A DNA stretch of 64,000 nt from Octopus vulgaris (taxonomy: Eukaryota), in the NCBI GenBank assembly GCA_951406725.2, contig OX597827.1, positions 71,052,001 through 71,116,000 of the forward strand, given 5' to 3'. The notes below the pieces were generated by a model, which was not told the origin of the DNA, made no database searches, and worked only from the letters and a program-made list of their open reading frames with translations. A program made the position numbers and the translations under genes. Numbering within the stretch: position 1 is the stretch's first letter; the number at the start of each line of letters is the position of its first letter. Shown here in pieces: positions 9,121 to 62,205 of this stretch.

Positions 9121-10028
9121 CAAAGTTGAGTTGTGGGGTATCGCACGAGTGGAATTATATACGAAAGAAGGTTTGAAAATGCAATTTAAAAGATGTTTAT
9201 TTACTTAACCGGTTTCACTCTTTGGAAAAAGATTGTCAAAAGTAACATAGAATACTATGAATTCAAAAACGTTTTTTACATAATTGCCACATTGAATATT
9301 AAGAATTCAAAAAAGTTTTTTTACATAATTGTCACATTACATGTATAAATATAATGTTTGGTAACAGGGATATATTAAGGGCATAAAGAAGTTCAACAGT
9401 GTGATGAGAATATTTGGAAAAATTGGCAGAAAAGAATAAAACAAATATATTATTGGAAATTTGGTTGCGTTAATTATTGGTTGTTGCAAATTGTCACATT
9501 ACATGTATATATAGAGAGTCTTTGGTAAAAAGGACATGTTAAAGACATAAGGAAGTGCAATAGTATGGTGAGAATATTTGAAAAATTGACAGAAAAAATT
9601 TAAATGAATATATTATACATCTCAGGGTCCGTACAGAATATTATGAATTGAAGGCGAGAGTTTGTTTTTACTGACCTGTTCGTTTTAGCAGAAATGTTGA
9701 ATTGAGAGAAATGTACCCGTTTTGTTCTGTTTATGGCTTCCCTTCAAGCATCAATGATTTTGGGGTTATCATGAGGTGAGTATGTGTGTCTCTCTGCGTG
9801 TGTATGAATAGATGTGTCTGTGTGCCCGTAGTATCTGGTCAGACGGCGTCTGTTTGTCACACACATACACACACACAACACACACACACACATAATATAC
9901 AAACACACAACACGCACACACAACACACACACATACAGAACACACACATACACAACGCACACACATATATAATATACACACACAGCATACAGATATAACA
10001 TGTATTTATATATAATACACACACATAT

Positions 10029-10061
<33 letters not shown>

Positions 10062-10585
10062 CACATGCACAAATACATACATACATAATATAAATATAAC
10101 ACAAATACACCTAGCACATATATACATACAATACACATACACAGCATATATATAATACACATACACAATATATACATACAATATACATGCACAATACATA
10201 CATATAATATATATATATAGACAATGCATATACATATATACATATATACATATAAATAGTGTTTACATACACATACATAAATATACCACATATACACACA
10301 ATATACATACATACAATGTATACATATACACGTACGCATACATATAACATATATATACACACACACATAACATACACATACACAATGCATACATATATAT
10401 ACATGCAATGTATATACATGTATTCATGCATATATAACACACCTACAATATACATATATACAATGCACACATACACACACATATACACATAATTGTACAC
10501 ATACATATACAATACACATACATACAATATACATATACACAATGCACATGCAAATAATGCACATATTTATACACACATATATATG

Positions 10586-10621
<36 letters not shown>

Positions 10622-10876
10622 CACACATACACACACATACATATATAAAATTCACACACACACACACACACAAAATACATACCTATAGCGTACACGCACA
10701 TATATATCTCTACATACCGCACACACACACAAACAATGTACTCACATATACACACATACCATGCATACACACACCCAACACATATATATATATATAAAAC
10801 AAATACACATGTAAATACATACACACGCACACAATGCACACACACACACACAGTGCACACACACACACACACATAT

Positions 10877-10934
<58 letters not shown>

Positions 10935-11119
10935 CACTCACACACATACATAACCTACATATATATAATGCATGCGTGTGCGTGCCGCGTATGTGTGCGG
11001 TCAATGCCCGCTAGTGTGTCCTATGTGTGCCGATGCGCGCATGTGTCCGCCCGCACGATATGCTGCGAGTGTGCGCGTGTCCCTGTGTGCTTGCTCTGGA
11101 TGTGTGCCTAGGGGGTATG

Positions 11120-12094
11120 TTAGAGTATGTTTAGTTGTGGTCTGTATTTTTGAATAAGATTACTTTCCCTATTTATTCGTGTTTGGTCTGTCGTGTTGTC
11201 CGAGCATTGGTATAGTGGGAAGACTAAGAATTTGGGGGACTTATTGTGTGCACAAAGGTCTAAGTGTCCACTTAGTGGTATCTGTCTTGTAGAGGGGTCC
11301 CTCAGTTGTTGTCGGTGAACTGTCATTCTTTCTCTGAGGGTAAGGCTCGTTTGCCCTATGTAGTCTTCGTGGCATCCTTCACACCTTATGACGTAGAGTA
11401 AATTTTTTGATGCGCACGTGAAATTATTTTTTATGATGAATGTGTGTCCCGAGTGGAGCTTGTACGTCGATCCCTCAATGAGGTGGATGCAAGTCCTGCA
11501 GTTGGGGCGACCACATTTTTTGATGGTGGGCGGTGGGTTTGTGTTGTGTAATTTTGCGTTGGTGAGGAGGTTTTTTAGGGATTTATGTTGTCTCTTACTT
11601 TTTATTATTTTATGAGCTGCCAGTATTTTTTTCAGGCGTGGGTCTTGATTTAGTTGTGGAATGTTGTTGTATATAATAGTGTAAGCTTCTGCATTCCTTG
11701 GGTTGTGTGTTGAGAGATAGGGGAGGCTATTTACTGTACTGTGGATGTGTTTGGGTTTTCGTAGGTCTTGAGTGTTGATTGATTTGGCCCGTTCTATTCC
11801 GTTGTCTACTAGTGATGCCGGGTAATGTCTTTCGAGAAGAATTGCCCTTAGTTCCCGGAGTCTTCTATTTCGTGTTGTGTCATTTGAGACAATAGTGCAG
11901 ATTCTTCTCGCTAGGTTGAAGGGGATATTTGTCTTTGTGTGTTTTGGGTGATTGGAGGTGAATAGAAGGTATTGTTTAGAGTCAGTGGGTTTGTAATGGA
12001 TGTCAGTTTCAATCTTGACGCCTTTTTTAATGATTAGAATATCAAGAAAAGGGAGTTGGTCCTGACTATATTCCATTGTGAATTGAATCTCCAA
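11120..12094 (-). CDS. Penelope-like ORF 3' part (RT end and thumb, CxxxxCxxC linker, GIY-YIG endonuclease); 5'-truncated, no genuine start
   Basis: IQFTMEY..LPFLDI..TDIHYKPTD; CGRPNCRTC; FTCASKNLLYVIRCEGCHEDYIGQT..RERMTVH..GH..RE..I..Y.P.LN. The mirror copy 12089-12927 (+) has two +1 frameshifts. Confidence 0.9.
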   Translation of the reverse strand: MEIQFTMEYSQDQLPFLDILIIKKGVKIETDIHYKPTDSKQYLLFTSNHPKHTKTNIPFNLARRICTIVSNDTTRNRRLRELRAILLERHYPASLVDNGIERAKSINTQDLRKPKHIHSTVNSLPYLSTHNPRNAEAYTIIYNNIPQLNQDPRLKKILAAHKIIKSKRQHKSLKNLLTNAKLHNTNPPPTIKKCGRPNCRTCIHLIEGSTYKLHSGHTFIIKNNFTCASKNLLYVIRCEGCHEDYIGQTSLTLRERMTVHRQQLRDPSTRQIPLSGHLDLCAHNKSPKFLVFPLYQCSDNTTDQTRINRESNLIQKYRPQLNIL

Positions 12095-13113
12095 TCACCC
12101 AAAACACACAAAGGCAAATATCCCCTTCAACCTAGCGAGAAGAATCTGCACTATTGTCTCAAATGACACAACACGAAATAGAAGACTCCGGGAACTAAGG
12201 GCAATTCTTCTCGAAAGACATTACCCGGCATCACTAGTAGACAACGGAATAGAACGGGCCAAATCAATCAACACTCAAGACCTACGAAAACCCAAACACA
12301 TCCACAGTACAGTAAATAGCCTCCCCTATCTCTCAACACACAATCCAAGGAATGCAGAAGCTTACACTATTATATACAACAACATTCCACAACTAAATCA
12401 AGACCCACGCCTAAAAAAAATACTGGCAGCTCATAAAATAATAAAAAGTAAGAGACAACCTAAATCCCTAAAAAAACCTCCTCACCAACGCAAAATTTAC
12501 ACAACACAAACCCACCGCCCACCATCAAAAAATGTGGTCGCCCCAACTGCAGGACTTGCATCCACCTCATTGAGGGATCGACGTACAAGTTCCACTCGGG
12601 ACACACATTCATCATAAAAAATAATTTCACGTGCGCATCAAAAAATTTACTCTGCGTCATAAGGTGTGAAGGATGCAACGAAGACTACATAGGGCAAACG
12701 AGCCTTACCCTCAGAGAAAGAATGACAGTTCACCGACAACAACTGAGGGACCCCTCTACAAGACAGATACCACTAAGTGGACACTAAGACCCTTGTGCAC
12801 ACAATAAGTCCCCCAAATTCTTAGTCTTCCCACTATACCAATGCTCGGACAACACGACAGACCAAACACGAATAAATAGGGAAAGTAATCTTATTCAAAA
12901 ATACAGACCACAACTAAACATACTCTAACATACCCCCTAGGCACACATCCAGAGCAAGCACACAGGGACACGCGCACACTCGCAGCATATCGTGCGGGCG
13001 GACACATGCGCGCATCGGCACACATAGGGCACACTAGCGGGTATTGACCGCACACATACGCGGCACGCACACGCATGCATTATATATATGTAGGTTATGT
13101 ATGTGTGTGAGTG

Positions 13114-13187
<74 letters not shown>

Positions 13188-13420
13188 ACTGTGTGTGTGT
13201 GTGTGCATTGTGTGCGTGTGTATGTATTTACATGTGTATTTGTTTTATATATATATATATGTGTTGGGTGTGTGTATGCATGGTATGTGTGTATATGTGA
13301 GTACATTGTTTGTGTGTGTGTGCGGTATGTAGAGATATATATGTGCGTGTACGCTATAGGTATGTATTTTGTGTGTGTGTGTGTGTGTGAATTTTATATA
13401 TGTATGTGTGTGTATGTGTG

Positions 13421-13462
<42 letters not shown>

Positions 13463-14809
13463 CATATATATGTGTGTATAAATATGTGCATTATTTGCAT
13501 GTGCATTGTGTATATGTATATTGTATGTATGTGTATTGTATATGTATGTGTACAATTATGTGTATATGTGTGTGTATGTGTGCATTGTATATATGTATAT
13601 TGTAGGTGTGTTATATATGCATGAATACATGTATATACATTGCATGTATATATGTATGCATTGTGTATGTGTATGTTATGTGTGTGTGTATATATATATG
13701 TTATATGTATGCGTACGTGTATATGTATACATTGTATGTATGTATATTGTGTGTATATGTGGTATATTTATGTATGTGTATGTAAACACTATTTATATGT
13801 ATATATGTATATATGTATATGCATTGTCTATATATATATATTATATGTATGTATTGTGCATGTATATTGTATGTATATATTGTGTATGTGTATTATATAT
13901 ATGCTGTGTATGTGTATTGTATGTATATATGTGCTAGGTGTATTTGTGTTATATTTATATTATGTATGTATGTATTTGTGCATGTGTTGTGTGTGTGTGT
14001 TGTGTGTGTGTGTGTGTTATATATGTGTGTGTATTATATATAAATACATGTTATATCTGTATGCTGTGTGTGTATATTATATATGTGTGTGCGTTGTGTA
14101 TGTGTGTGTTCTGTATGTGTGTGTGTTGTGTGTGCGTGTTGTGTGTTTGTATATTATGTGTGTGTGTGTGTGTGTGTTGTGTGTGTGTATGTGTGTGACA
14201 AACAGACGCCGTCTGACCAGATACTACGGGCACACAGACACATCTATTCACACACACGCAGAGAGACACACATACTCACCTCATGATAACCCCAAAATCA
14301 TTGATGCTTGAAGGGAAGCCATAAACAGAACAAAACGGGTACATTTCTCTCAATTCAACATTTCTGCTAAAACAAACAGGTCAGTAAAAACAAACTCTCG
14401 CCTTCAATTCATAATATTCTGTACGGACCCTGAGATGTATAATATATTCATTTAAATTTTTTCTGTCAATTTTTCAAATATTCTCACCATACTATTGCAC
14501 TTCCTTATGTCTTTAACATGTCCTTTTTACCAAAGACTCTATATATATACATGTAATGTGACAATTTGCAACAACCAATAATTAACGCAACCAAATTTCC
14601 AATAATATATTTGTTTTATTCTTTTCTGCCAATTTTTCCAAATATTCTCATCACACTGTTGAACTTCTTTATGCCCTTAACATATCCCTGTTTCCAAACA
14701 CTATATTTATACATGTAATGTGACAATTATGTAAAAAAACTTTTTTGAATACATAATATTCAATGTGGCAATTATGAAAAAAACTTTTTTGAATTCATAA
14801 TATTCTATG

Positions 14810-14854
14810 TTACTTTTGACAATCTTTTTCCAAAGAGTGAAACCGGTTAAGTAA
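14810..14854 (+). ncRNA. Minimal type-I hammerhead-like motif with U3:A8 core in the Penelope 3' end (mirror copy 9201-9245 on -)
   Basis: TTACTT-TTGACAA-TCTTT(TTCC)AAAGA-gt-GAAA-CCGG-TT-AAGTAA, followed by AATAAA. Confidence 0.6.
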
Positions 14855-14893
14855 ATAAACATCTTTTAAATTGCATTTTCAAACCTTCTTTCG

Positions 14894-14940
<47 letters not shown>

Positions 14941-29300: not shown

Positions 29301-30198
29301 AATAACAACCACTACATGGAGTGGAGGCGCAATGGCCCAGTGGTTAGGGCAGCGGACTCGCGGTCGTAAGAACGCGGTTTCGATTCTCAGACCGGGCATT
29401 GTGAGTGTTTATTGAGCGAAAACACCTAAGCTCCATGAGGCTCCTGGGGTGGGGGAATGAAGCCCGCTGTACTCTTTCACCACAACTTTCTCTCACTCTT
29501 TCTTCCTACTTCTGCCGCAAAGCAGAGGAACCATGGTGTAACCCACTATGGTGTGGTAAACTTTCTGACCCCAGTCTAGATTGCGAATCCTCTGTACCCC
29601 AGGATGGTTCAGCTCTCCACCCGTTAAAAGCCACCGTTTACGGAATGAAGATAACAACGTAGCTTTCGCGCCCGTGCAACCGCTAGTCTATCATGTGTGG
29701 TGGGTGGATCTTCAAGTTGCCACACGCATTCTTAGTAGCTTAGAGTAGGCTCGAATTAGAGATTATTCTTTGTGGCTAACGGCGCGAGTCCTGATTGGAA
29801 GAAGAAGAAGAAGAAGAAGAAGAAGAAGAAGAAGAGCATTGTCACTGAATTTTTTTTCCTTTTCCCCCCTTTATCTTCTTTGTTTACTTTTTTTAATTTT
29901 TGTTTTTTCTCTCTGTCCTTCTTCCTTTTTTCTCTATCACATGACTTTGTAAACGAACAATCTGGTGTGCTTATTTAAATATCCTACCAATGCGGTTCTC
30001 TGTCATAGGTGTCGGGAAGACACTCGGCAAGAAATGGAAACAGAATTGAAAGATGATAATGAAAATAAAAATAATGATAATCCTTTCTACTATAGGCACA
30101 AATGCCTGAAATTTGGGGTAGGAGGATAGACGATTACATCGACCCCAGTACTCAACTTACCCCTTCCTTCGAACTTGCTAAAATTTGAAATTAATATT

Positions 30199-30577
30199 AA
30201 ATCTCTGAACGAGGTATAAACAGTAACTGCACGACAATGTGAGGTATACTTGCCATCTCAATATGGCTAACCACTAAGGGTGGGTGTTACTGTAGCTTCT
30301 AGCCCCAGGAGAACGTCGTCTCCAGCTGGCTTTAGGCACACTTTCTGTGCCCTTATGGTATTTATCGTACGCTGATGACAGGTCAAAACCTAGAAACTGC
30401 AGTCCGTGCGTATCACTTAGGTTCACGAGGGAAGGGTGACCTCCCTTTGCAAATACCATAAGGGCACAGAGAGTATGCGTAAAGCCAGCTGGAGACGATG
30501 TTCTCCTGGGGCTACAAGCTACAGTAACACCCATCCTTAGTGGTTAGCCATATTGAGATGGCAAGTATACCTCACAT
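30199..30577. mobile_element. 379-bp non-coding foldback retroelement (inverted pLTR or retrozyme-like) with 11-bp TSD
   Basis: Arms about 30237-30363 and 30451-30577; 38-nt unpaired tail; direct repeat aaattaatatt at 30188-30198 and 30578-30588. Confidence 0.8.
30366..30410 (+). ncRNA. Minimal type-I hammerhead ribozyme with canonical core; predicted cleavage after GUC at 30404
   Basis: CGTACG-CTGATGA-c AGGT(caaa)ACCT a-GAAA-CTGCAG-TC-CGTGCG; 6-bp stem I; palindromic stem III. Confidence 0.8.
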
Positions 30578-31564
30578 AAATTAATATTCTTGTATGAGTA
30601 TACCCGCTTTCCATTGTAATGGTTAGCTTCTTTAACCTGGTGACATTAATTTTCGTGTCTGTTTTCATCATGTCTGAAATGGCCAGGTTTGGCCATTTCT
30701 ATTATCTTTATTATTGTTTCTGTTACATCTACCATCGTGGATATTTATTCTTGAGAAGTGCTTTTTCTGCTAAATATGAAATCTGTAGGTTTTAGTTCTT
30801 TGTTTATCCCCTTTAGATTATCACCTTCATAAATTCCACCATCGTTAGAAATTTTCTTTGTAAATTTTCCTCACATTCTCTTTTATTTATGCTTTTGCCG
30901 TGCTGTTCCGGTTTGGTTCTTGCTAGTCAAGTCTTCTGTAGTTTTGTATTTGGTTTTGTTGTGTTTGGTCATTTACTTCATTTTGCCCTGTATTTGGTCT
31001 ACTTTCGTTTTCGTTTGTTTGCCTCTGGAATGTCATCGTGTGGTAAGTAGCTTGTTTACCAACCACATGGTTCCGGGTTCAGTCCCACTGCGTGGCACCT
31101 TGGGCAAGTGTCTTCTACTATAGCCTCGGGCCGACCAAAGCCTTGTGAGTGGATTTGGTAGACGGAAACTGAAAGAATCCCGTCGTATATATGTATATAT
31201 ATATATGCGTGTGTGTGTTTGTGTGTCTGTTTTTGTCCCCCTAGCATTGCTTGACAACCGATGCTGGTGTGCTTATGTCTCCGTTACTTAGCGGTTCGGC
31301 AAAAGAGGCTGATAGAATAAGTACTGGGCTTACAAAAAAGAATAAGTCCCGGGGTCGAGTTGCTCGATTAAAGGCGGTGCTCCAGCATGGCCGCAGTCAA
31401 ATGACTGAAACAAGTAAAAGAGTAAAAGAGTAAGCATTCGCAGCCCTCAACCAGTCGGGCAATGCGCGGGTGTTTCAAGCTAACGAATGGTGAGGTGAAA
31501 AGTCGGGGGCGACAACAATCAAGGGACGTTAACAACGTCTTACACGGACAAGTAACTGACTTAC

Positions 31565-32782: not shown

Positions 32783-34270
32783 TTTTATTAGCCACAAGGG
32801 CTCAAATAAAACTACATTAAATGACATGCAGCAACATACAATGGGTTTTCCGTGTGTAAACAATATAAATAATTAAACTGAACAAATTAAAACTCCCAAT
32901 AGTTGGGGCGCTTTAAAGTCTTCGTGGAAAAAACCTACAAAAGCCATGGGTACTTGATCAACAGGGTAAGAGCCCTTCTTCTTTTTCTCACAGGTGTATA
33001 CTCAGAATTGGTCCTTTCACACTATGCATTCTTCCAACATTCACCCACTTTTCAACAAACTTGCTACAAGGCAACACTTCCCTCTCCACCCTCAGCTTCC
33101 TTTTCAAGTGAAACTTGAAAAAGTTGATGAGGGCTTGACCAAAGAGGAAGGTGTCTTTCTTTAGCCCTTTCAAGCGGGTCCACCATACCACCTCTTTCGC
33201 TACAGCCACTAGACAAATAAAAATTGCCAGCCCCACCCGGCCAAAAGAGAGCGGCAGGGCACTCTTCATAATGGATTCAGCTGATAGCCGGATCCGTCCT
33301 ACATGCGACCACAGGTGTTCGACATAAACCCACTGGTCAGCAATACTCGGGCACTGGACTAGGGCGTGCAGAACGGTTTCATCGTTCTGGGCGCCCGGCT
33401 GATGGGCGTTCGGGCAGGCCTGGCTGATTGCACTTCCGTGCCTGTAAAGTTTATCTTGAACAGGCAGCGCCCCTCGGTAGCACTGCCAGGCAAGGATTTC
33501 TGGAAGTTATCCATAGGCCCAGGCCTGAAAGTTCTCCGAAACAGACCGGTTAGTTGATCCCCATCGACGCCCAGAGTTTCCCCGAGAACGTCATTGCGCT
33601 TTCCCTCCACTAGCTCTCTAGAGAACGCTAGAGTGGAACTACCACCGACCGCATTGCGGCCTAGTAGAGGGCTGTGAGCGCTTGATGGCACTCGAGGTTC
33701 CAAGTGCTCCTCCTCGGTCTACGCCTATTCCACGTTTGCAGCTCAGCCAAAGAGACGAGCTGTGGAAAAGTGTGCCTGACATACAGTGACCACACTTGCT
33801 CACCGTCAAGGAAACGCTGGAGATGCTGCAACTTCAGCGCATGTCTGCACATCAGTAACCACGGCATGCCCAGCCCTCCATTCAGCGGCTGTTGACAGCA
33901 GAAGGGTCGCCTGAGCAGTGGAACGCGCCTCTTCCACAGAAAGCGGAAGAGTATGCGCACCAACATGGCCAACCAGCAAACGGAGCAAGGGACGACGGTC
34001 AAGCAGCAATAGATGACGGATGTGATGCACGCATTCGCCCCCTCCGCTCGACCTTTCAGGGGCAGCTTCCTTTCGGCCAATTTCTGGGTGAGATTGGCTA
34101 CCCTGCTCGTGACCTCGTCCCAGTTTTTCTCCACCGGGAGATCCGGACCAAACCAGACTCCGAGGAACTGTCCAGCACCCCACGGCGCTGTTGGGCGGCA
34201 TGGACTTGCTCCTCCAGGTGCCGAGTTGCAAGCCCACTCACTTTTCCGCGTTGATATTGGCTCCTGTCAC
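32783..34270 (-). mobile_element. L1-clade (Tx1-like) LINE 3' portion, decayed; further fragments 36105-36545 (+) and 56310-56570 (-)
   Basis: EKNWDEV..RKLPLKGR..N..IY..LFRFLW..R..C..P.NGGLGMP; C-terminal Zn-knuckle-like motif (..NDETVLHALVQCP); 3' end gagcccttgtggctaataaaag. Confidence 0.75.
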
Positions 34271-36824
34271 CGCTTAATAATAATAATAATAATAAAACAG
34301 AAAAAATTTTCGTGACCCTCTGTCCATATCTAACTGGGGAAAAGTCAGATATCAGATGTTGAACCCCCAATTCGAACTGCACTAACTATTCTGGTGTATA
34401 AAACCATCATCAGCCTAATCCCTTGAGGAGGTATACTCTGCAGCTCCAAAATCCTTTAGGTCTCTGGTCCTCCCTGTCCCTGCTGTGAGACTTGGACAGT
34501 CCGGAGCCCTTGTGGGAGGCGCCTGAACTCTTTCGGTGCCGGGACGCTTTGCAGGATTATGGGTTACCATTGGTGTGGAATGCGACCTGTTACTTGTTAT
34601 GATTTCGGAGTGCTAGCTCAGACATTTTGGTCATGTTGCTCGATTTTCCGAGTTAGACCCTGCTTAGCGTGTTCTCTTCACTGATGATTCGGTTGGGTTG
34701 ACGGCACGTGCTGGTCAACCACATATCGCATGATCACTGCCAGATGAGGCGGTATTTCGTGGAGATAGGGACCGACAAGGACTCTGCTTTGTGGGTTGCC
34801 TGAGAAGACCCTGGAAAATACCAACGAGGATCTGACTGGGTTGATGGCTCGTGTTGGTCGACCACAAGACAGATGAGGGGTGTCCCGTGGAGACGGGGAC
34901 TGACTGAGACTCTGCTCGATGAGCCGCCCCAGGAGGTCCCGCGAATGTATCGACAAATGGTGAATGCAGCAACGTGCTTCTCTCCACAAGTGACCTGACA
35001 TCTGACCTACCTCCTGCCCATCTTTGAATGGGTTACTCATGGTCGTTGGTTGGTAGAATCGGTAAAATAACGGGAAATACATTGCAGCTAACCATATAGG
35101 CACAGGAGTGGCTGGGTGGTAAGTAGCTTGCTTACCAGCCACATGGTTCCGGGTTCAGTCCCACTGCGTGGCATCTTGGGCAAGTGTCTATATCCCCAGG
35201 CCGACCAATGCCTTGTGAGTGGATTTGGTAGACGGAAACTGAAAGAAGCCTGTCGTATATATGTATATTTATATATATATGTATGTGTGTGTGTGTGTGT
35301 TTGTGTTTGTCCCCCTAGCATTGCTTGACAACCGATGCTGGTGTGTTTAAGTCCCCGTCACTTAGTGGTTCGGCAAAAGAGACCGATAGAATAAGTACTG
35401 GGCTTACAAAGAATAAGTCCCGGGGTCGATTTGCTCGACTAAAGGCGGTGCTCCAGCATGGCTGCAGTCAAATGACTGAAACAAGTAAAAGAGTAAAAGA
35501 GTATATTTAAAATTTCAATGCCAACGGCCAATTTGACAAACTTGCTCACGATATTTGGTTCTGTGCACATAGGGCTGCACGTGTGGGCGGGGGCGTATGT
35601 ATGCGTGTGTGCCTGTGTATGTGCATGCACGTGTGTGTGTGTGTATGTACGTGTATGTGTATGTATGCACGCGTGTATGTGTGTATATGCATGTGAGTGA
35701 GTGGGTGAGTGAGTGAGTGAGTGAATGAGTGTCATTGTCAGAGTTGTGGTCGAGTGAGTCACTAAGACCATTCAAATTTCTGGCGTATGAAACGTTTCGA
35801 CTCGTGAGTCTTGGCTCAACTGAAAAGACGCTGACTTATTTGACACCGGACGTTTTAATATTTCTCTCCTTTCAAGGCGGCGATCTCGCAGAACCGTTAG
35901 CACGCCGGGCAAAATGCTTAGCGTCATTTTGTCCGTCTAGGCGTTCTGAGTTCAAATTCAACCGAGGTAGCCTTCGCCTTGCATCCTTTCGGGGTTGATT
36001 AAAATAAGTACCAGTTGAACACTGGGGTCGATGTAATCAACTTACCCCCTCCCCCAAAATTACTGACCTTGTGCCAAAATTTGAAACCAATATTTCTTTC
36101 GTTCTCTCCCTCTCCTATCTCTTTAAAAAAAAGATGGGTGAATGTAGCAAGGATGGCATGTATGAATGACGAAGCCACCTTGAGCATGATCCTATGAACC
36201 TAGAAATTGAAAACAGAGGGTTACCCACTTGCAAACAAATGTGGTAACATGTAACAATACTGACCGAGGTTGCCGTGGTCTTTTTCGTAGGCTTTTCTTC
36301 ACACGGATAAACCTTATCTGCTTCCCCCTTTAGACCGTACATCATGACACTGTGATACAAGATCCCTATTGATCGTTTTTTTCCTCTTCCCCTTTTTTCC
36401 TTTTTTTCTTTTTTTCCCTTTTACGATCCCTTTTGATCGAAAACCTACGCCCCTTTTCTTTTCTTTTTTTTTTCATCCCCCAAAAGAAAGCTCTACCTTG
36501 TAATTTTTCCCATCTGTGTGCAGCCCTGTGTGGCTAATAAAGAAACTTATTTATCTAGCTAGCTATCTTATGCGCATATTTCTGCGCTCGTGCTAGGGCA
36601 TGTGCGGTTTGTCTCCAGCGCCTAAGAATACTGTCGCCAAAAACTGGCCGAATGTTCAACCACTCAGCCATGCCACGTTGCCAGCGCCGAAACAGCTGCG
36701 CCCAGTCGTCTTCTTCCGTATTTTTCTATTTCCGTCTGTTATACAATGCTCACAAGACCACTCATGTTTGGCTACATGATGAAAACCCAAACGTGACTTT
36801 TCCCTTTTCTACTCATGACAACAA

Positions 36825-41308: not shown

Positions 41309-42577
41309 AAAAGACAAAAAAACAAACAAACATAAAGGATGAATGAAAGAATGGAAGAAATAAAGAAGGAAAGATCGAATGAAAGCATAGCACACAAGAA
41401 AAAGAAAAGAAAAGAAAGAGAAAGATAAAGAAAACATCAATAAGAATAAAGTTTGAAAAGAAAAGAAAGGAAAAAGAACTGGGGGAAAAAAAGACAGAAA
41501 ACGAACGGAAGAACGACAGTAAGAAAGCCAGAAACAGAAATACATAGAGATGAGAAACAATTTTGCTTTGGCTTAAGTCTTAATGCTGGAGAAAGTATTA
41601 TTTGGACGAGGTCAACTTTGCCCCGAGGTCAACTTTGCTCCGAGGTCAACTTTGCCCCGAGGTCAACTTTGCCTTTCATCCTTTCGGGGTCGATAAATTA
41701 AGTACCAGTTACGCACTGGGGTCGATATAATCGACTTAATCCGTGTGTCTGTCCTTGTTTGTCCCCTCTATGTTTAGCCCCTTGTGGGTAGTAAAGAAAC
41801 AGATATATACTCTTTTACTCTTTTAGTTGTTTCAGTCATTTGACTGCGGCCATGCTGGAGCACCGCCTTTTCTAGTCGAGCAAATCGATCCCGGGACTTA
41901 TTCTTTGTAAGCCCAGTACTTATTCTATCGGTCTCTTTTGCCGAACCGCTAAGTGACGGGGACGTAAACACACCAGCATCGGTTGTCGAGCGATGCTAGG
42001 GGGACAAACACAGACACACAAACATATACACACACATACATACATATATATATATATACATATATACGACAGGCTTCTTTCAGTTTCCGTCTACCAAATC
42101 CACTCACAAGGCTTTGGTCGGCCCGAGGCTATAGCAGAAGACACTTTCCCAAGATGCCACGCAGTGGGACTGAACCCAGAACCATGTGGTTGGTAGGCAA
42201 GCTACTTACCACACAGCCACTCCTGCGCCTATATACTTTATATATAAGCAAGAGATGTGGTCAGAGACTGTGGTATGGTGAAATTGAATCAACTTTCACT
42301 GGGGAATCATTTTTTTAATGTTTAAAATCACACACACACACACACACACACAAATTAACTGTTTATATCACTTACGAGCAAAACGCCCCCCCCCCACCTG
42401 TCCAATGGACGGTGCTGAGTTGTCAAACATTTAAACCAAATTTTCTCAAAACAACTTGTCCGACCGTCCCATAGGCCTCCCCTTTGAGAAAGACTGATTT
42501 AACCTAAATTTGAGACACCAGCAAAAGAAGAAATAAAAATAGACTTTTTTTTTTCTATTCCAAGAAAAACGATTTTA

Positions 42578-45848: not shown

Positions 45849-47150
45849 GGTAATTAGGGGCTCATTTAGCAATGGATCGTTGCAGAAATCCAGTGGAAAA
45901 GCTTAGTTGTATATATAACCGGCTAAAATGATCCTTACGAGTAACATATATTTAGAATAAGATTCAGTAAAGCATAACATTAACAAATAGGTCGAATTTA
46001 ATTACTTTCAACGGCTGTTTCATTAGAAATAAACGTAATTAATTCTGACGTGGTTGCGTGGTAAGAAGCTTGGTTCCCGGTTCAGCTCAATTGCGTAGCA
46101 CCTTGGGCAAGTGTCTTCTAATATAGCCCCAGGCTAACTAAAGGCTTGTGAATGGATTTGATAGACGGAAACTGAAAGAAGCCCATCGTGTATATACGCC
46201 AACGCACGAAACTTTCGGACCTTGAGTCAATCTGTTGCTTCTGCTAAATTCTAATCTCTCTCTCTCTCTCTCTCTCACTCTCGCTCTATCTCTCCCCCTC
46301 TCTCTCTCTCTCTACATACATACATACATACATACAGACAGACAGACAGACAGACATATACATATATATAGGCGCAGGCGCGGCTGTGTGGCAAGAAGCT
46401 TGTTTCCCAACCACACGGTTCCGGTTTCATTCCCACTGCGTAGCACCTTGGGCAAGTGTCTTCTGCTATAGCCTCGGGCTGACCAAAGCCTTGTGAGTTG
46501 ATTTGGTAGACGGAAACTAAAAGAAGCCCGTCGTATATATATATGTGTGTGTATATATTTGTGTGTCTGAGTTTGTTCCCCACCATCGCTTGACAACCGA
46601 TGCTGGTGTGTTTACGTCCCCGTAACCTAACAGTTCGGCAAAAGAGACCGAGAGGATAAGTACTAGGATCACAATGAATAAGTCCTGGGATCGATTTGCT
46701 CGACTAAAGGCGGTGCTCCAGCATGGCCGAATACTGAAACAAGTAAAAGAATAAAAGAAAGAATATGTATGTTTGTATGTATGTATGTATTTATGTATGT
46801 ATATGTATATGTGTTTGTACCTTTGTGGCTGTGCTTGTCCCCACATCACCGGTGTTGGTGTGCTTACGTTCCCGTAAATTAGCGGTTCGGCAAAAGAGAC
46901 CGATAGAATAAGGACTAGATTTTCAAAATCTAAGTACTGGGGTCGATTTGTTCGACTAAGACCCTTCAAGGTGGTGCTCCAGCATGGCCGCAGTCAAATG
47001 ACTGAAACAAGTAAAAGAATAACGGAATTTAAGGCAAAGAATTAATAAGGTTTCAAGTGTGGCATTGTTCCGTTATCTGCATTCCAAAGATGGAGCATTG
47101 TATTTTTGTTAGAAACCAGCTCCTTCCAAATAGAAAGAATTTAAATAGCT

Positions 47151-47219
<69 letters not shown>

Positions 47220-48581
47220 TACATGCATACATATGTGCATAAGTTCAGGTTTATACCTGCAAATATTTGGGCCCTGGGATATGTAACATACTGCCTAAAT
47301 ACCAGTCTTGAGAAATTAGGCTTCTGAAAACCTGAAAGGAGAAAGCTAATACGAAGACTACAGATCCAATCCATCACTGGAACTGTAAAAAATCTGTAAA
47401 ACTTTCCTTGAGTTTATCATTTAAGCATATATGAACATGTCTAGATATGTAGCTATATGCATAATCTTTACTCATTTACTCTTTTACTTGTTTCAGTCAT
47501 TTGACTGCGGCAATACTGGAGCACCGCCTTTAGTCGAGCTAATCGACCCCAGGACTTATTGTTTGGAAGCCTAGTACCTATTCTATCGGTCTCTTTTGCC
47601 AAACCGCTAAGTGACGGGGACGTAAACACACCAGCATCGGTTGTCAAGCGATGTTGGGGAGGACAAACACAGACACACAAACATATACACATACATATAT
47701 ATACATATATACGACGGGCTTCTTTCAGTTTCCGCCTACCAAATCCACTCACAAGGCTTTGGTCAGCCCGAGGCTATAGTAGAAGACACTTGCCCAAGGT
47801 GCCACGCAGTGGGAATGAGCCCGGAACCATGTGGTTGGCAAGCAAGCTACTGAGAATACATACATACATAAAAGAAAACATACAAATCTGCACACATGCA
47901 TACATACATACATACATACATACATACATACATACATACATACATACATACATCATACATACATACATACATACTCTGTTGATGTTGTAATTCGAATGAA
48001 GGAGCTTTGGATCCAGATTAGACACCGGCTCTTTCTCTATTGCCAAGAAATCTTGAAATAAAACTCAATCGTGACACGCATACGTACATATACATGAAAA
48101 TGAAAAAAATATGCAAAACCCATTAACATAACAATGAAGACGTGGGGAAATGGAATTGTAAAGTTGAATCTAATGTATACATCATGGACACACAGGGGGG
48201 AAAAAAACAAGCGTCGAATATAGTACAAGTGTCAGAATACAAAGGGAGACGTGAAGAAGGCAGTTTGAAGCGCAAATGAAAAGTATAGACTCACACACAC
48301 ACACACATTATTATTGTTTGCAAGCAGCGTGCAGATACAAGAGCTATCAACTGAAAGCTCTGCATACCGTGCACTAGCATGCTTAAGGGGTCATCAGGAG
48401 AGAATGTGTGACGTTTCGGGAGCTCCCGCTCGACGGCATTATTTCACACTGGGCCCTCTTAACTGAAATGAGGCCACGCTTTCTAGATCCAGTGGTTAGT
48501 AGGCTTCATTCAATATTTTTCTAGTCTTTGTTCATCCTCCCTTTTTAAACAAATACATGTAGGTACATCAATGCAAAAATA

Positions 48582-51467: not shown

Positions 51468-53249
51468 TTGCACATATGCATGCATACATACATAAATACA
51501 TACATACACACGTACATACATAAATACATACATACACACGTACATACATTTCAGAAAGAGAAATCGACCGGCTAATACATACATGCATTACAAGTGCAAT
51601 CTGTGAGTGGAACAGTAAAAATATGCGAGACTTTTCTCAAGTCCCAAATGTGAATTTGTAATTCGAAAAGAAGAACAAGTCAACATCATCGGTAACCACT
51701 GAGCCGCAGGTTTTATGTCGGAGTTATCCCAGTTACCCGAGTTGCCTTCTCCTAGAAGGATGCCCTAACAAAGGCTAGGAGTCCTTCACTCCCAATGGTT
51801 TAACCGCGCGATCGGGTATTCAGTCCGATTATTTCTATGTCCCCGCGCATGATCCAGCATTAAGACATTTATTGGATGGTCGTTGACTCTCAAGAGTTCC
51901 TCCGCCCTTTGACGGGTTTTGTTTTTCATCCCGCAGGGTGTCCAATAAACACCCTCCTCAGCAAGCAGGCTTGGTGGTGTTGCCGGTCTAGTCGCCGACG
52001 ACCCGACATGCAACAGGTTGTACTGGGTACATACATACATACATACATACATACAAACATACATAAATACATACATACATACATACATACATAAATACAT
52101 ACATACATACATAAATACATACATACATACATAAATACATACATACATACATAAATACATACATAAATACATACATACATACATACATAAATACATACAT
52201 ACATACATACATACATACATACATACATACATACATACATACATACATACATACATACATACATACATACATACATACATACATGATGGTAGAAACTCGA
52301 TTTCGAGCAATAATCTTGAAGTTCTTTTTTAAAGTAGGGAAAGGCCCTGCTACGGGGCTAATTACTCTCTCTAAACAACATGGGCATTTGCCCCCAAAAG
52401 AACTGGTCTAAACGAAGCAGCGGGTATTACATCTGAGTTTCCCTTCTGCTGGAGCAGTGGTTCTGAACCGGGGTTCATGTGACCCCTGAACGTCCGTACA
52501 AGATTTGGAGTGGGTGGGTGGAACGAAAGTAAAAGAGTAAATAGGGGGTCCACAATAGTATTTTAAGGGTTCATGAAAAAAATTTGATTTAGGTATATTT
52601 ATTGCAAGAAACAGTAATATTCCCTTCATGCTTCCAGTCGTTGAAACATGTTCTCTAGGTGAATGTTATGACAAAAAGTGGCCGTGTGGTAAGAAGCTTG
52701 GGCAAGTGTTTTCAACTAAAACCTAGGGCCGACCAAAGCCTTATAGTTGGATTTGGTAGATGGAAACTGGTTGACGTTTCAATTGCCCCGATTAGTAACA
52801 GTTAACTGTTGAATAACATATTTAGAATACCTGAGGAGAGCAAAGTGGTAATCGACAATAACAATGTCTGCGTGGAAGGTGTTTATAAGCCATTTAAGAA
52901 ACACACAAAAACCAGTAGATCCACTTCAACATTTAAATTTAATTTGCCAAAATATTTTCGTCGCTTCGAGACTGCGACCTGATATATATATATATAGGCT
53001 TGAAACGCAAAAGATTTTCTCACTTCTCGAGCGTTAAACTAATAAATCTGTTTGTTGTTTACACACCCGTCTTCGTCTTTTGCTTTTTTGTAATTTCTTA
53101 CTATATGTATATATATTCTAAATTATAACGTATATAAATAATCTTCTTATCTATCTATCTAATATCGAAGCCTCATTCTTTTGTCGTTACGCAGAGGCGG
53201 TACCATAGCCAATGAGGGTTATCCGAGGCGTGGTTATTGCTAGTTGAAA

Positions 53250-53281
<32 letters not shown>

Positions 53282-53861
53282 CATTATTATTATTATTGAG
53301 TGAGAGAGCAGTGCATGCCATCAGAGTGACACTGGGGTAAAATATACGAAACCCAGTATACCCATCATGACTACCCGTCTGATAAGGGTACACTGGGCAC
53401 ATGCATCACAACCATATGTGTGCGACATGGTGATCTCATATCAAGATAAACAGCACATGACCTTGCAGGTGGGGCCCAGTTAGAATTTTCTTCTGGTCGA
53501 GTAGCCCATCCCGCTCAAAAGGTCCCTGAATAAGGGTTGTTTAAGGATGTTGAAAGAACCACCCATGTTTCCAAAGGTGAATTATCCAAACTTCTAAAAA
53601 TTCTTTCAACACATGGCTATGATGCTCCCCCACTACTTCTGCTTGTGATCAGAGATGCACATATCATCAGCCACTAAGGGACATGCTCAACTGGTTAAGG
53701 TCAAACAACTGACAAGCAAATCTGTGGTATTGAGCAGAATATTTGCTGTAGGCCATCTTTTATACCAAGACAAAACAATGTACATGATAACACTTCCAAT
53801 CAGTTAAGATCAGAAGCCATGAGAGCCAGTGCCTGGTACTGCGTCAGATAGATAGACAGAC

Positions 53862-59250: not shown

Positions 59251-60961
59251 GATACTATAAACATATCTTGATATTCTTTCGTTTCTTTTACTTGTTTCCG
59301 TCATTTGACTGGGGCCATGCTAGAGCATCGCCTTTAGTCGAGCAAATCAACCCCAGGACTTATTCTTTGTAAGCCTAGTACTTATTCTATCGGTCGCTTT
59401 TGTATGTACACGTGGGTGTGTATGTATGCACACATATATATATGTGCGTGTGCGGGTATGGGTGTGTGCATGTGTGGGTATGTATATGTGTGTATATGTG
59501 TATATGTATATATATACATATATATATGTATGCATATATGTGTATATATATATATATATGCGTGCGTGTGTCTGTGTGTGTATATATATGTATATGTATA
59601 CTGTCCGTGTATATATATGCATATTCTGTTAAAATCTTTTGCCCGCAAGTTTCTTACGTTCATGTCTACCTAATGTACCCACTATGACTCCGTATCTTAC
59701 CCGTGTGCAAGAACGAATCCTTTTGTTATACCTGTGTCTGTGCATATGCATACCTTTGTGTATAGGCATAGGGATCTACTCCCCCATGTGCGTGGGGGTG
59801 GACGCGAGCGCAGGTGTATACATATTCCTGCCCACACGCATAGAGATTCACTTCGTCTTGTACATGCGTGTAAGTGCGAGTGTGCCTATATGAACGCATG
59901 TGAGTGTATGTATGTACGTACGTATGCGCGTCGGTTCGTGTACCCAACTACATGCGCCTTTTTCCATATATATCTGTATATGTTTACACGAGAGTACGTA
60001 TGTATGCTTGTATGCGTGTAGTTGCGTATGCGTGCGTATATGTGCGCGTGTATATGGGTGTATGTATCCATGCGTGTACGTATGTACATGATGACCACTT
60101 AATACGTTACGAAGAACTAGATAAGCGACTCAACAACTCTAATTTACAATACACTAGGTCCCCAGACGCCCCGGTTGATTTATGACACCCAAGGCTTCTA
60201 CAACCAGAATTTGTCATTTTCCTGACCACCATGTTTGGTCCGTAACTACTATATATCACTTATCCTTATATTCTTTTACATTCCTACACTCTTATACCCT
60301 TTATACTTCTGATAATTTTTTTTATTTTTCTAATTTTTTAATTTTTAATTTATTTTTTTTTTTTATTTATTTTTTTATAACTTTATACCTTTATATTCAT
60401 TTATATTTTTTTATATTTTTTTATATCTTTTTATATCTCTTTATATCTTTATACTCTACATTTTTATATTTTTCTATACTTACTCTTTTTATATATTTTT
60501 TATCCTTCGTCCTGAATTCTCGCCCCTCCATCTTGATCCTTATTTGCTCTTATTACCAGGTTCCTTCACGTCTGTCTGTATTTTATATATGTATATATTT
60601 ATTTATTCATTTATTTATATTACCTCAACATCCAAACTTCCTCATTCTACATTGAGAGAAGGACGAGATGGACGCTTCATTTTTATGCTGTTGCCGCATT
60701 ATGTCGTACGCGAATGAGAGGATTTGCATCCCCAACGCAGAATTTTTGATGTAATACATGTCCTTGAGGTAGTAGTTGTGCGCGGCTGAAGAAGGCCATA
60801 GACATACATTATGCATTGTTATAAATCCGTCTAATAAAGGCCCGAAACATATGTACCGCTGAATCCTTGGCATCATGTTTTTATTTTTATTAACTTACTC
60901 CACCACCTACACCACCAAACGGTATATACAGGTGCTTACAATTATCAAGTACTCACCCTGA

Positions 60962-61020
<59 letters not shown>

Positions 61021-61399
61021 TACGACAGGCTTCTTTCAGTTTCCGTCTACCAAATCCACTCACAAGGCATTGGTCGGCCCGGGGCTATAGCATAAGACAT
61101 TTGTCCAAGATGCCACGCAGTGGGACTGAACCCGGAACCGTGTGGTTGGTTATCAAGCTACTTACCACACAGCCACTCCTGCGGTATGTGGATTCCATGA
61201 ACGTTTTAATCTGCCGTTATGGCAGATTCTTAATTTACAAGATAACGTAAGTACCTGAGAATAAACGAAATTCAAAACTGCATTGATACACCAAAATTGA
61301 AAACAATCTGAGCAAAATTAAAGGGGGCTGATTTTGTGAGTGAAACACAGAAGATCCGAATTGCCTATAACAGTCCATTTCTATTAATTTTTTTTCTTT

Positions 61400-62127
61400 G
61401 TGTTTTGTATATATATATCATCTTGTATTTCTTTTGTGCTTATAAACTGCATTCATCATGAACCGGCAGCAAAAACTGAAAGCTGCTCGCGCGAGAATGA
61501 AACTCTACAGGCAGAAGATAAGGGAAGAGTTGATGAGGGAAATCTTAAAGAGGGACAGGCAACGCCAGCAGCTGAGACGAGCGTCAGTGGAGGGTGAACA
61601 ACGCGAGGAACAAAATAGGAGCAAAATAGGAGGAGACAACAAATAAGACGAGGAAATATGAATGAGGAGCAGCGTACCACAGTACTACGAGCGGCAGAGA
61701 AACTTTATTTCAGCAAAGAGTAGAGAACATGAATCAACATGAGAGGGTTATTTATAAGCAAAACCGACGGGGAAGATATCGAGAAAGAGTTCAAAATATG
61801 AATGCTGGTGAAACTGAAAATTTAAGGAGGCATCAGATGCAGCGACAGCGTTGTGAGAAGACATAGGCCAGTGCTGATGCTGAACAGAGCTATTGTTAAT
61901 TCTTTTTTTTTAAATCTTTTTACTTGTTTCAGTCATTTTTGACTGCGGCCATGCTGGAGCACCGCCGTTAATCGAGCAACTCGACCCCGGGACTTATTCT
62001 TTTGTAAGCCCAGTACTTATTCTATCGGTCTATTTTGCCGAACCGCTAAGTGACGGGAACGTAAACACACCAGCAACGGTTGTCAAGCAATGCTAGGGGG
62101 ACAAACACAGACACACAAACACACACA

Positions 62128-62205
<78 letters not shown>

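Follow-up and report, generated by a model that had tools for sequence, protein, structure and literature searches.

What is a hairpin of 379 bp, with near-perfect arms and a hammerhead motif in its loop, doing in the genome of Octopus vulgaris, and what put it there? It lies in the window analysed here, a stretch of 64,000 nt of contig OX597827.1 (assembly GCA_951406725.2, positions 71,052,001 to 71,116,000 of the forward strand), for which an earlier note, made from the letters of the DNA, had proposed a young, non-autonomous insertion of a Penelope-like element (PLE) or a retrozyme. Our analyses indicate that the hairpin is very probably a single insertion of a hammerhead-bearing repeat, carried out in trans by the reverse transcriptase (RT) and GIY-YIG endonuclease of a PLE.

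Anatomy of the insertion

Read directly from the sequence, the element spans 30199-30577 and is built from the following parts, unit positions being those of the family's repeat unit:

30188..30198, no strand: left copy of the flanking duplication (TSD), 11 bp, AAATTAATATT
30199..30236, minus strand: one-sided tail of 38 nt, equal to unit positions 1-38 in reverse complement (family unit 356 nt)
30237..30363, minus strand: left arm, an inverted 5'-truncated copy, unit positions 229-356
30364..30365, no strand: head-to-head junction, the two bases AT, within an imperfect GGT.ATT microhomology
30366..30577, plus strand: direct 5'-truncated copy, unit positions 144-356
30451..30577, plus strand: right arm, that portion of the direct copy with which the left arm pairs
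30578..30588, no strand: right TSD copy, 11 bp, AAATTAATATT, an exact duplicate of the left copy

The arms are 95% complementary, with 6 mismatches over 127 nt, and a loop of 87 nt lies between them. The direct copy begins where the hammerhead has its 5' edge and finishes in ...CCTCACAT, the usual 3' end of the family; the tail continues from the unit 3' end as it would on a head-to-tail template, and the last 4 nt of the left TSD equal unit positions 39-42, forming a microhomology with the tail. The outline given in the earlier note thus stands: the 379-bp hairpin has the same coordinates and is flanked by an exact 11-bp duplication, the arms of about 125 bp with few mismatches measure 127 nt with six, and the 38-nt tail sits on one side, at 30199-30236. 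The element was also right to be called non-coding. Its longest frame, 89 aa from stop to stop on the minus strand, has no Pfam match, and neither the frame listing nor the Pfam scan gives, for the element or the 356-nt unit, a reading frame with RT and GIY-YIG; lacking such a frame of its own, the element is filed as non-autonomous. The RNA is predicted to form a long duplex capped by a motif-bearing loop, as had been suggested, with a folding energy of -269 kcal/mol for the plus strand (z = -30.9 against shuffles) and -259.4 kcal/mol for the minus strand (z = -27.5). The word "young", by comparison, can be kept only in a relative sense: there are four private substitutions in the right arm and two in the left, over 127 nt each, and with two to four such changes per arm the copy is not brand new.

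The proposed setting, about 1 kb from the first coding exon of a host gene, found no support. The stop-to-stop frames listed near the site and throughout the window contained no host exon, nor did a Pfam scan of seven nearby frames reveal one; the frames within about 3 kb are derived from microsatellites or repeats, six of the seven scanned are without a Pfam match, and the seventh, with a sub-threshold zf-RVT match at 32988-33506, is transposon-derived. Elsewhere in the window, at about 9156-14899, there is a second, far larger palindrome. Among the joints listed in the search for an empty site, no contig joins across 30199-30588. Two contigs labelled as other organisms do reach into the element, one of 376 nt by 30 nt from the right flank and one of 98 nt, with a second such label, by 27 nt from the left; both overlaps fall below the 31-nt rule and give a weak hint that the insertion is shared. 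In its present place the element is, most likely, carried along passively and does nothing.

The repeat family and its insertion footprint

A search of the 2.8-Gb genome returned 2,937 first-look candidates, 40 of which were scored and yielded 101 matches; full-length hairpin copies show 84-92% identity. With the 5' part of the unit, 845 first-look candidates were obtained, and identity was 93-100% in 40 of the 42 matches listed. The family unit is 356 nt long and non-coding (no Pfam match), with a GC content of 0.43-0.44, 61-64% of its bases paired and a circular fold at z = -3.9 to -5.7. We chose 28 non-redundant loci with the 5' part of the unit: a single 5'-truncated copy is present at 12 of them and a direct partial tandem at 7, and at the other 9 the upstream copy is inverted and has a tail at its outer end. 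The window copy, an inverted twin with the tail outside, has the architecture of these last nine loci. Both the tandem and the inverted copies that the earlier note had wanted to tell apart are therefore present (7 and 9 of the 28), and its assignment to non-autonomous PLE or retrozyme insertions gains support from a non-coding, multi-copy family that occurs in both forms. Hammerhead motifs stand in pairs 354-356 nt apart at three loci (L010, L018 and L051), and the longest array sampled is a dimer.

The tails are informative about the template. At the outer end of most hairpin copies they measure about 39-48 nt and in a few they are longer; most other hairpin copies extend to about unit position 47 (AGCAATAAT...), as compared with 38 nt in the window copy. 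Because the tail is contiguous with the next unit in most of the copies compared, we take it to be the start of a unit read on from a head-to-tail template; at 3 of the 27 non-redundant hairpin loci there is a second tail run-on. The duplication reported for the window copy is real and also found in the family, with lengths of 8-20 bp (median 12) at 17 of the 27 hairpin loci, and 7 of the 27 are located in (TA)n/(CA)n microsatellites. The junctions at the centre vary among copies, recurring at an AGGTCA/TGACCT microhomology, and since they differ, the hairpins appear to have formed independently and not to have been copied from one master.

Much of this has been described for PLEs, whose end repeats are pseudo-LTRs (pLTRs). 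The available text of Craig et al. (2021, PMC8557442) reports inverted 5'-truncated copies, a tail of 30-40 bp at one end, hammerheads in the pLTRs and a (TA)n bias; Frangieh et al. (2024, PMC11167929) report that both strands are cleaved and extended and that two adjacent internal RT start sites bound the tail. As far as these texts go, endonuclease-positive PLE insertions are like ours in the inverted 5'-truncated copy, the partial tandems in the family, the one-sided tail (38 nt here), the variable duplication, the AT-rich or (TA)n targets, the hammerhead in the repeated part and the two alternative 3' ends bounding the tail. Similarly, the two fixed 3' ends, the scattered 5' stops and the microhomology junctions of the family have their counterparts in the behaviour reported for one lizard PLE in vitro. 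There are differences: unlike PLEs, the element and the unit have no RT/GIY-YIG frame and no sequence similarity was found to the 16 PLE loci examined, and the tails in the family reach about 47-48 nt, and more in a few, against the 30-40 bp given in the available text. The structure is nevertheless that of the published PLE footprint, and for this reason we class the element as non-autonomous, an insertion of PLE type or a "non-LTR retrozyme"; within that known class there is nothing unusual about it.

Of the other routes to such a hairpin, the least improbable is a retrozyme copied by a reverse transcriptase of non-PLE origin, such as that of a LINE, with the inverted half arising from snap-back synthesis or twin priming. 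Near the site LINE fragments are frequent, the zf-RVT match at 32988-33506 among them, and variable duplications and 5' truncation are also produced by LINE insertions. Twin priming, however, inverts upstream sequence and does not duplicate the same segment, which we count against a LINE, and no poly(A) or LINE-type 3' tail is seen at the 27 hairpin loci. A tail lying between two fixed ends and a (TA)n bias are, in the available text of PMC8557442 and PMC11167929, specific to PLEs, and we consider copying by a non-PLE reverse transcriptase unlikely.

Small size, lack of coding capacity, long near-perfect inverted arms and a flanking duplication would equally suit a MITE, in which case the arms would be the terminal inverted repeats of a non-autonomous DNA transposon and the 11-bp duplication the work of the transposase that moved it. 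Yet the ends are not mutual inverted repeats, with a 38-nt tail on one side only, the unit also occurs as 5'-truncated singles at 12 and as direct partial tandems at 7 of the 28 loci, the centre junctions vary between copies, and the duplication ranges over 8-20 bp where a fixed length would be expected. Asymmetric ends, a variable centre and tandem and truncated sister copies are retroelement-like, not cut-and-paste, and leave a MITE very improbable. We attach just as little credence to a single-copy insertion that some local process at the DNA level (fold-back replication or repair, for example) later made palindromic. Replication errors can yield palindromes, and the larger one at about 9156-14899 is in the same window, but the head-to-head layout with the tail outside recurs at 9 of 28 independently chosen loci, the duplication brackets the entire hairpin exactly, and the layout is an insertion form described for PLEs in the available text of PMC8557442. 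Insertion by PLE machinery is the reading that we retain.

The hammerhead motif

The loop of the hairpin carries these elements of a type-I hammerhead, all on the plus strand:

30366..30410, plus strand: type-I hammerhead motif, in the hairpin loop
30366..30371 with 30405..30410, plus strand: helix I, CGTACG with CGTGCG, 6 bp, one G.U among them
30372..30378, plus strand: core CTGATGA (CUGAUGA)
30380..30383 with 30388..30391, plus strand: helix II, AGGT with ACCT, 4 bp, loop CAAA
30393..30396, plus strand: GAAA
A30396-T30403 and C30397-G30402, plus strand: helix III, 2 bp, palindromic loop TGCA (UGCA)

The conserved type-I core is present in full and in order (C3 U4 G5 A6 N7 G8 A9, G12 A13 A14, A15.1-U16.1, H17), and three helices surround it, helix I being the open one. 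Alignment of the core equates C17 with C30404 and thus arrives at the cut predicted earlier, directly after C30404. A relaxed type-I descriptor, scanned on both strands, has exactly one match in the window; the same descriptor matched twice in 300 first-order Markov simulations of the window, so the match is improbable by chance. The motif had been called intact, a term that applies to the motif alone: the Rfam search at gathering score gives no hammerhead match for the window copy, nor does a search at E <= 10 over 30150-30650; C30379 and A30392, where helix II has its base, are unpaired (a C.A mismatch); helix III has 2 bp; and the motif is a single one. In the distal part of helix I, which in family copies has 5 bp and an internal loop, two of the five pairs are broken in the window copy.

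The hammerhead is a feature of the family. Its canonical core is kept in 37 of 50 family copies, and N7, the sole free core position, varies most (T in 30, G in 10, A in 6 and C in 3). Positions 10.1 and 11.1 are C and A in 47 of the 50 copies, as compared with G and C in the consensus of Rfam HH9; on a better family copy, at locus L031, the best Rfam score is 14.2 bits for HH9 against a gathering score of 52 (E = 0.3). One helix II pair switches from A-U to G-C in three rows of the alignment. Covariation is weak, with 93.7% of cells paired as against 93.3% in shuffles, and the three pair changes that affect both sides are matched by 79 of 500 shuffles.

Given a helix III that is both minimal and palindromic, the prediction is that cleavage requires a dimer, a double hammerhead formed in tandem transcripts via the 8-nt palindrome ACUGCAGU. 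When two 45-mers are co-folded, the model gives a double hammerhead with an intermolecular helix III of 8 bp at -26.7 kcal/mol, compared with 2 x -11.7 kcal/mol for the monomers; the hammerhead fold of the monomer reaches -4.9 kcal/mol against a minimum of -11.7 kcal/mol for a different fold. Having a single motif only, the window copy would be expected to cleave inefficiently, if at all. Among the 5' ends of 85 copy segments there is no peak where the cut is predicted, unit positions 184 and 185 being found once each; in these 85 segments, a sample biased towards look-alikes of the query, 5' truncation peaks at unit positions 163, 215 and 239.

According to the available text of Cervera and de la Pena (2014, PMC4209133), metazoan type-I hammerheads have helices I, II and III of 6, 4 and 1-2 bp, the last with a palindromic loop, and act as dimers. 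The window motif is like these minimal hammerheads in its helix sizes (6, 4 and 2 bp), its 4-nt palindromic loop, the unpaired nucleotide 5' of helix II and its predicted dimeric action, and differs from those in that text by an extra unpaired A 3' of helix II (the C.A at 10.1/11.1), and it falls below the threshold of every Rfam family. For an axolotl motif, too, helix II is reported to have a mismatch at its base (available text of the retrozyme papers PMC7229834 and 10.64898/2026.07.22.740005).

Head-to-tail repeats of 150-450 bp, each with a type-I hammerhead, define non-LTR retrozymes. In the available text of Cervera and de la Pena (2020, PMC7229834) and of 10.64898/2026.07.22.740005, the metazoan ones share with our family a low-GC unit (0.43-0.44 here) that is non-coding and about 300-400 nt long, a type-I hammerhead whose helix III has 2 bp and a tetraloop, and, as far as the partial tandems and dimers sampled go, a head-to-tail arrangement, with a period of 354-356 nt in the family; unlike them, the window copy is an inverted twin and not a tandem. 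No tails, inverted copies or duplications are described for metazoan retrozymes in that text, the sole mention of "TSD" concerning plant LTR retrozymes. Retrozymes are PLE derivatives according to the available text of the preprint by Li, Clavereau and Pollet (2026, 10.64898/2026.07.22.740005). Among the matches listed in the literature for octopus, cephalopod and squid, there was no description of retrozyme or hammerhead elements in cephalopods.

The remaining possibility, that the host has selected the hairpin or the hammerhead as a functional RNA (as a ribozyme within an intron that acts on a host transcript, say, or as a substrate for editing or small RNAs), is the least credible of all: double-strand-specific enzymes could plausibly act on a duplex of 127 bp and the fold is very stable, but the window copy is one of thousands, private substitutions in both arms break its pairing at six positions, and no nearby host exon was demonstrated.

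The probable mobilising enzyme and a proposed course of insertion

If a PLE inserted the repeat, its relatives may be sought in the same genome. PLE reading frames are numerous there, and the GIY-YIG family PF01541 gives 6,136 first-look candidates. A 781-aa open frame holds 16 of the 148 GIY-YIG matches listed and is present in all four copies fetched; the one that was scanned has RVT_1 together with a GIY-YIG domain at its C terminus, lies in (TA)n and has end repeats of 504 bp that are 100% identical. A blastn search with the unit found nothing in the four full-length 781-aa PLE loci, nor, with relaxed scoring, in 16 PLE loci (those 4 and 12 GIY-YIG loci), which are a small sample of the 6,136 candidates. 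A regular expression for the hammerhead core gave seven pattern matches on PLE loci, none of them judged convincing, and a covariance model of the family (R1) matched the window copy only, at 77.3 bits, the 16 PLE loci being negative. With no unit-like autonomous PLE among the 16 loci, we infer the mobilising enzyme from the footprint alone.

The following course of events would account for the layout. The PLE protein would bind head-to-tail, possibly circular, repeat RNA, and its endonuclease would nick an AT-rich target on both strands, at points about 11 bp from each other. Each freed 3' end would then prime cDNA at one of two internal start sites, the first at ...CCTCACAT, unit position 356, and the second about 38-47 nt further, in the next unit, whereby the tail would arise. 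Both cDNAs would stop early, at unit positions 144 and 229 in the window copy, and be joined head to head at a short microhomology; filling of the staggered nicks would leave the duplication. We lean somewhat towards seeing in the hairpins an in vivo record of a dimeric Penelope-type enzyme that primes on both strands, 38-47 nt apart, on multimeric or circular ribozyme RNA and whose products are joined by microhomology.

By itself, the window copy is transposon debris, though if transcribed it would form an RNA duplex of 127 bp. The family, on the other hand, is a clean natural data set on how PLE integration is completed and on the origin of tails and of tandem and inverted copies, and it is relevant to the question whether PLE machinery carries the small hammerhead "retrozymes" of animals. 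Should the hairpins be such a record, they would provide footprint evidence, beyond co-occurrence and phylogeny, that PLE machinery mobilises animal retrozymes, and hundreds of natural junctions in which the late steps of PLE integration could be read. In the octopus itself, the family has dispersed very stable RNA hairpins of at least 100 bp throughout the genome, a potential source of double-stranded RNA if they are transcribed.

The hairpin element and its family

The arms of about 125 bp, the 38-nt tail, the 11-bp duplication and the hammerhead arrangement in the loop are all present where the earlier note had placed them.

Features of the window element
30188-30198 and 30578-30588: target-site duplication AAATTAATATT, read from the sequence
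30199-30577: element between the duplications, 379 bp
30199-30236: unpaired one-sided stretch (tail), 38 nt, without counterpart at the other end
30237-30363 and 30451-30577: inverted arms, 127 nt each, 95% complementary, 6 mismatches, 87 nt between them
30366-30371 (CGUACG) with 30405-30410 (CGUGCG), + strand: helix I
in the hairpin loop, + strand: hammerhead core, CUGAUGA
following the core, + strand: helix II, AGGU/ACCU, then GAAA
around the UGCA loop, + strand: helix III, A-U and C-G pairs
30404, + strand: C17 of the hammerhead

RNA of either strand is predicted to fold into a single long hairpin (-269 kcal/mol, z = -30.9, for the + strand; -259.4 kcal/mol, z = -27.5, for the - strand) with the motif in its loop, in agreement with the rod-like duplex proposed before. 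A search with the element through the 2.8-Gb genome of the species itself returned 2,937 first-look candidates, 40 of which were scored and gave 101 matches; among these, full-length hairpin copies are 84-92% identical to the window element. There are also longer palindromic relatives, at 96-98% identity, whose two arms each contain the hammerhead. A query with the stretch 5' of the motif gave 845 first-look candidates, and at most of these loci ...CCTCACAT comes first, TGTCGTGCAG...ATTATTGCT second and TGCATACAG... third, the tail sequence running directly into the next unit. Because of this continuity, the family repeat is a 356-nt unit occurring head to tail, and the tail corresponds to the opening 38-47 nt of the unit that follows. 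Expressed in unit positions, the window element consists of the reverse complement of 1-38, the reverse complement of 229-356 and then 144-356; counting a 4-nt overlap with the duplication would take the tail to unit position 42. Both direct partial tandems and inverted copies, which the earlier note had proposed to tell apart by BLAST, were found.

The hammerhead motif and its conservation

The type-I hammerhead motif starts at unit position 144, with a predicted cut after 182. Our own relaxed descriptor (helix I with 6/6 pairs, CUGANGA, helix II of at least 3 pairs with at most 1 unpaired base per foot, GAAA, the A-U closing pair of helix III and H17) matched once on both strands of the 64-kb window, at the loop motif, and twice in 300 window simulations under a first-order Markov model. 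No Rfam hammerhead reached the gathering score in the window or E <= 10 in 30150-30650, and the best Rfam match on a better-preserved family copy was Hammerhead_HH9, which at 14.2 bits (E = 0.3) falls short of its gathering score of 52. The motif had been called a complete type-I hammerhead; the arrangement is indeed there, but it falls below the Rfam threshold, sets a C opposite an A at the helix II foot, where the Hammerhead_HH9 consensus has G-C, and has a helix III of 2 pairs only. Older, more diverged copies (loci L004, L022, L025, L027 and L018:1291-1366, - strand) read ...CCTC ahead of GAAAC. In one older copy the foot is G and C, versus C and A in the young subfamily, and for this reason the lack of pairing at the foot may have arisen as a derived trait in the most recently spread subfamily.

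Cervera and de la Pena (PMC4209133) describe the architecture of the window motif for most metazoan hammerheads: helix I of 6 bp, helix II of 4 bp and helix III of 1-2 bp, the last closed by a small palindromic loop. In PLE (Penelope-like element) motifs they report an unpaired nucleotide on the 5' side of helix II, and they describe activity as dimers in tandem transcripts. A U.U mismatch at the helix II base is reported for an axolotl retrozyme motif (PMC7229834). For the octopus monomer, the hammerhead secondary structure is predicted at -4.9 kcal/mol versus -11.7 for a competing fold; two 45-mers are predicted to co-fold into a double hammerhead (-26.7 kcal/mol versus 2 x -11.7) in which the palindrome ACUGCAGU pairs between the two molecules to give an 8-bp helix III. 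As the window copy contains just one motif and has 2/5 pairs broken in the distal helix I kept by the family, we expect it to show little or no self-cleavage.

Among 50 family copies spanning the motif, every core base is retained in 37 and the helices too in 35. N7, the sole core position that hammerheads leave free, is the most variable core position (T in 30 copies, G in 10, A in 6 and C in 3), and U4 has changed to C in 6 copies. One helix II pair goes from A-U to G-C in three alignment rows; covariation is weak overall (93.7% of cells paired versus 93.3% in shuffles), as expected for young repeats. No pile-up of 5' ends was seen at the predicted cut among 85 copy segments, a non-random set of the best-scoring look-alikes of the queries, and these segments therefore give no sign of in vivo cleavage.

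Age, locus and neighbouring features

The description of the insertion as young needs some qualification: the window copy belongs to the younger subfamily (loop 2 CAAA, relatives at 96-98% identity), though it is not a fresh insertion. In a site-by-site comparison with 95 further arm copies, its 127-nt arms bear private substitutions (4 in the right, 2 in the left). Contigs from DNA runs labelled as two other organisms cross from the unique flank into the element and, reaching just 30 and 27 nt into it, hint weakly that the insertion is shared. The joints listed include no empty-site joint, which had been suggested as a check. The host's first coding exon, supposed to lie about 1 kb away, was not found; the frames within 3 kb are microsatellite- or repeat-derived, and of 7 nearby frames, 6 have no Pfam match and the seventh has a sub-threshold, transposon-derived zf-RVT match.

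Elsewhere, a large palindrome occupies 9156-14899, with arms at about 9156-11957 and 12089-14899 and a 131-nt spacer; the arms, microsatellite-rich flanks included, are 95-99% complementary in blocks. Near its centre is a GIY-YIG-coding PLE fragment (11120-12094, - strand, PF01541, 25.1 bits), mirrored at 12087-12617. The palindrome could be a large inverted duplication, a head-to-head PLE insertion with flanks or an assembly artefact. A U4 snRNA match at 53183-53310 (+ strand, 76.3 bits) fits well over the 5' 75 nt and has a (TTA)n-like microsatellite in place of its 3' half, and is probably a U4 copy that is truncated or has decayed. A second very abundant short repeat, with frames ...RPCWSTAF... 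and ...GTEPGTMWLV..., has many copies on both strands of the window, the part at 31016-31100 reaching word depths in the millions.

Copies of the RPCWSTAF/GTEPGTMWLV repeat
31033-31400, 35439-35771, 41968-42318, 46275-46993, 47505-47990, 60894-61250, 62065-62448

Insertion forms and the Penelope-like footprint

The 5' part of the unit, a query without bias to hairpins, was used to select 28 non-redundant loci. These comprise 12 single 5'-truncated copies, 7 direct partial tandems and 9 loci that have an inverted upstream copy with the tail at the outer end, the layout of the window element. The hairpin set comprised 27 non-redundant loci (29 aligned, two duplicates dropped): 17 are bordered by duplications of 8-20 bp (median 12), another 7 lie within microsatellites that make any duplication unreadable, (TA)n at one flank and (CA)n(TA)n at the opposite flank, and 3 run on into a second tail. 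The unit position of the head-to-head junction varies among copies, and the recurrent junction, 163|215, lies at a short inverted match (AGGTCA/TGACCT) in the unit, which fits hairpins formed independently at microhomologies and not copied from a single hairpin master. At the right ends of hairpins in (TA)n (loci L006, L013, L020, L021 and L024), a (CA)n tract immediately follows ...CTCACA before (TA)n resumes; it resembles the product of stuttering, or of CA added without a template, at the AC-rich site where reverse transcription starts.

The PLE traits described by Craig et al. (PMC8557442) include 5' truncation, partial tandems, an inverted copy that stands at the 5' end and is itself 5'-truncated, a one-ended tail of 30-40 bp, hammerheads within the pseudo-LTRs (pLTRs), which are the end repeats of PLEs, and a (TA)n bias. 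In vitro, the protein of a lizard PLE cuts both target strands and extends them, prefers AT-rich DNA and begins reverse transcription at two adjacent internal sites, the tail being the sequence between these starts; its hammerhead mutants still inserted (Frangieh et al., PMC11167929). The octopus family has the matching pattern in vivo, with one end at ...CCTCACAT, the other about 38-47 nt further, and an AT-rich target ending in ATT; two cDNAs would meet head to head.

The genome supplies PLE enzymes: the Pfam GIY-YIG family gave 6,136 first-look candidates, and a 781-aa open frame contains 16 of the 148 matches listed and is present in all 4 PLE copies inspected. Locus L081 (G000:C6:133343000-133350500), like L078-L080, is a two-frame PLE in which an ORF1 of 333-479 aa precedes the 781-aa frame, an RT with C-terminal GIY-YIG; the L081 copy lies within (TA)n, its 504-bp end repeats being 100% identical, and this type has been active recently. 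No canonical hammerhead turned up by pattern search in these repeats. Since the unit showed no sequence similarity to the 16 PLE loci examined, its assignment to PLE machinery rests on the insertion footprint.

The ends are asymmetric, the centre varies and there are tandem as well as truncated sister copies, all of which argue against a MITE. The main point of the earlier note, a non-autonomous PLE or retrozyme insertion, is borne out by the tail, the duplications and the tandem, inverted and truncated sister copies: by most tests of membership, the window element works like a non-autonomous PLE-type insertion and, in newer terms, would be a non-LTR retrozyme. That retrozymes derive from PLEs has been argued from co-occurrence and pLTR phylogeny (preprint 10.64898/2026.07.22.740005); as the portion of its text that we searched does not describe tails or inverted insertions of retrozymes, the footprint evidence is a modest addition to the case for their PLE origin.
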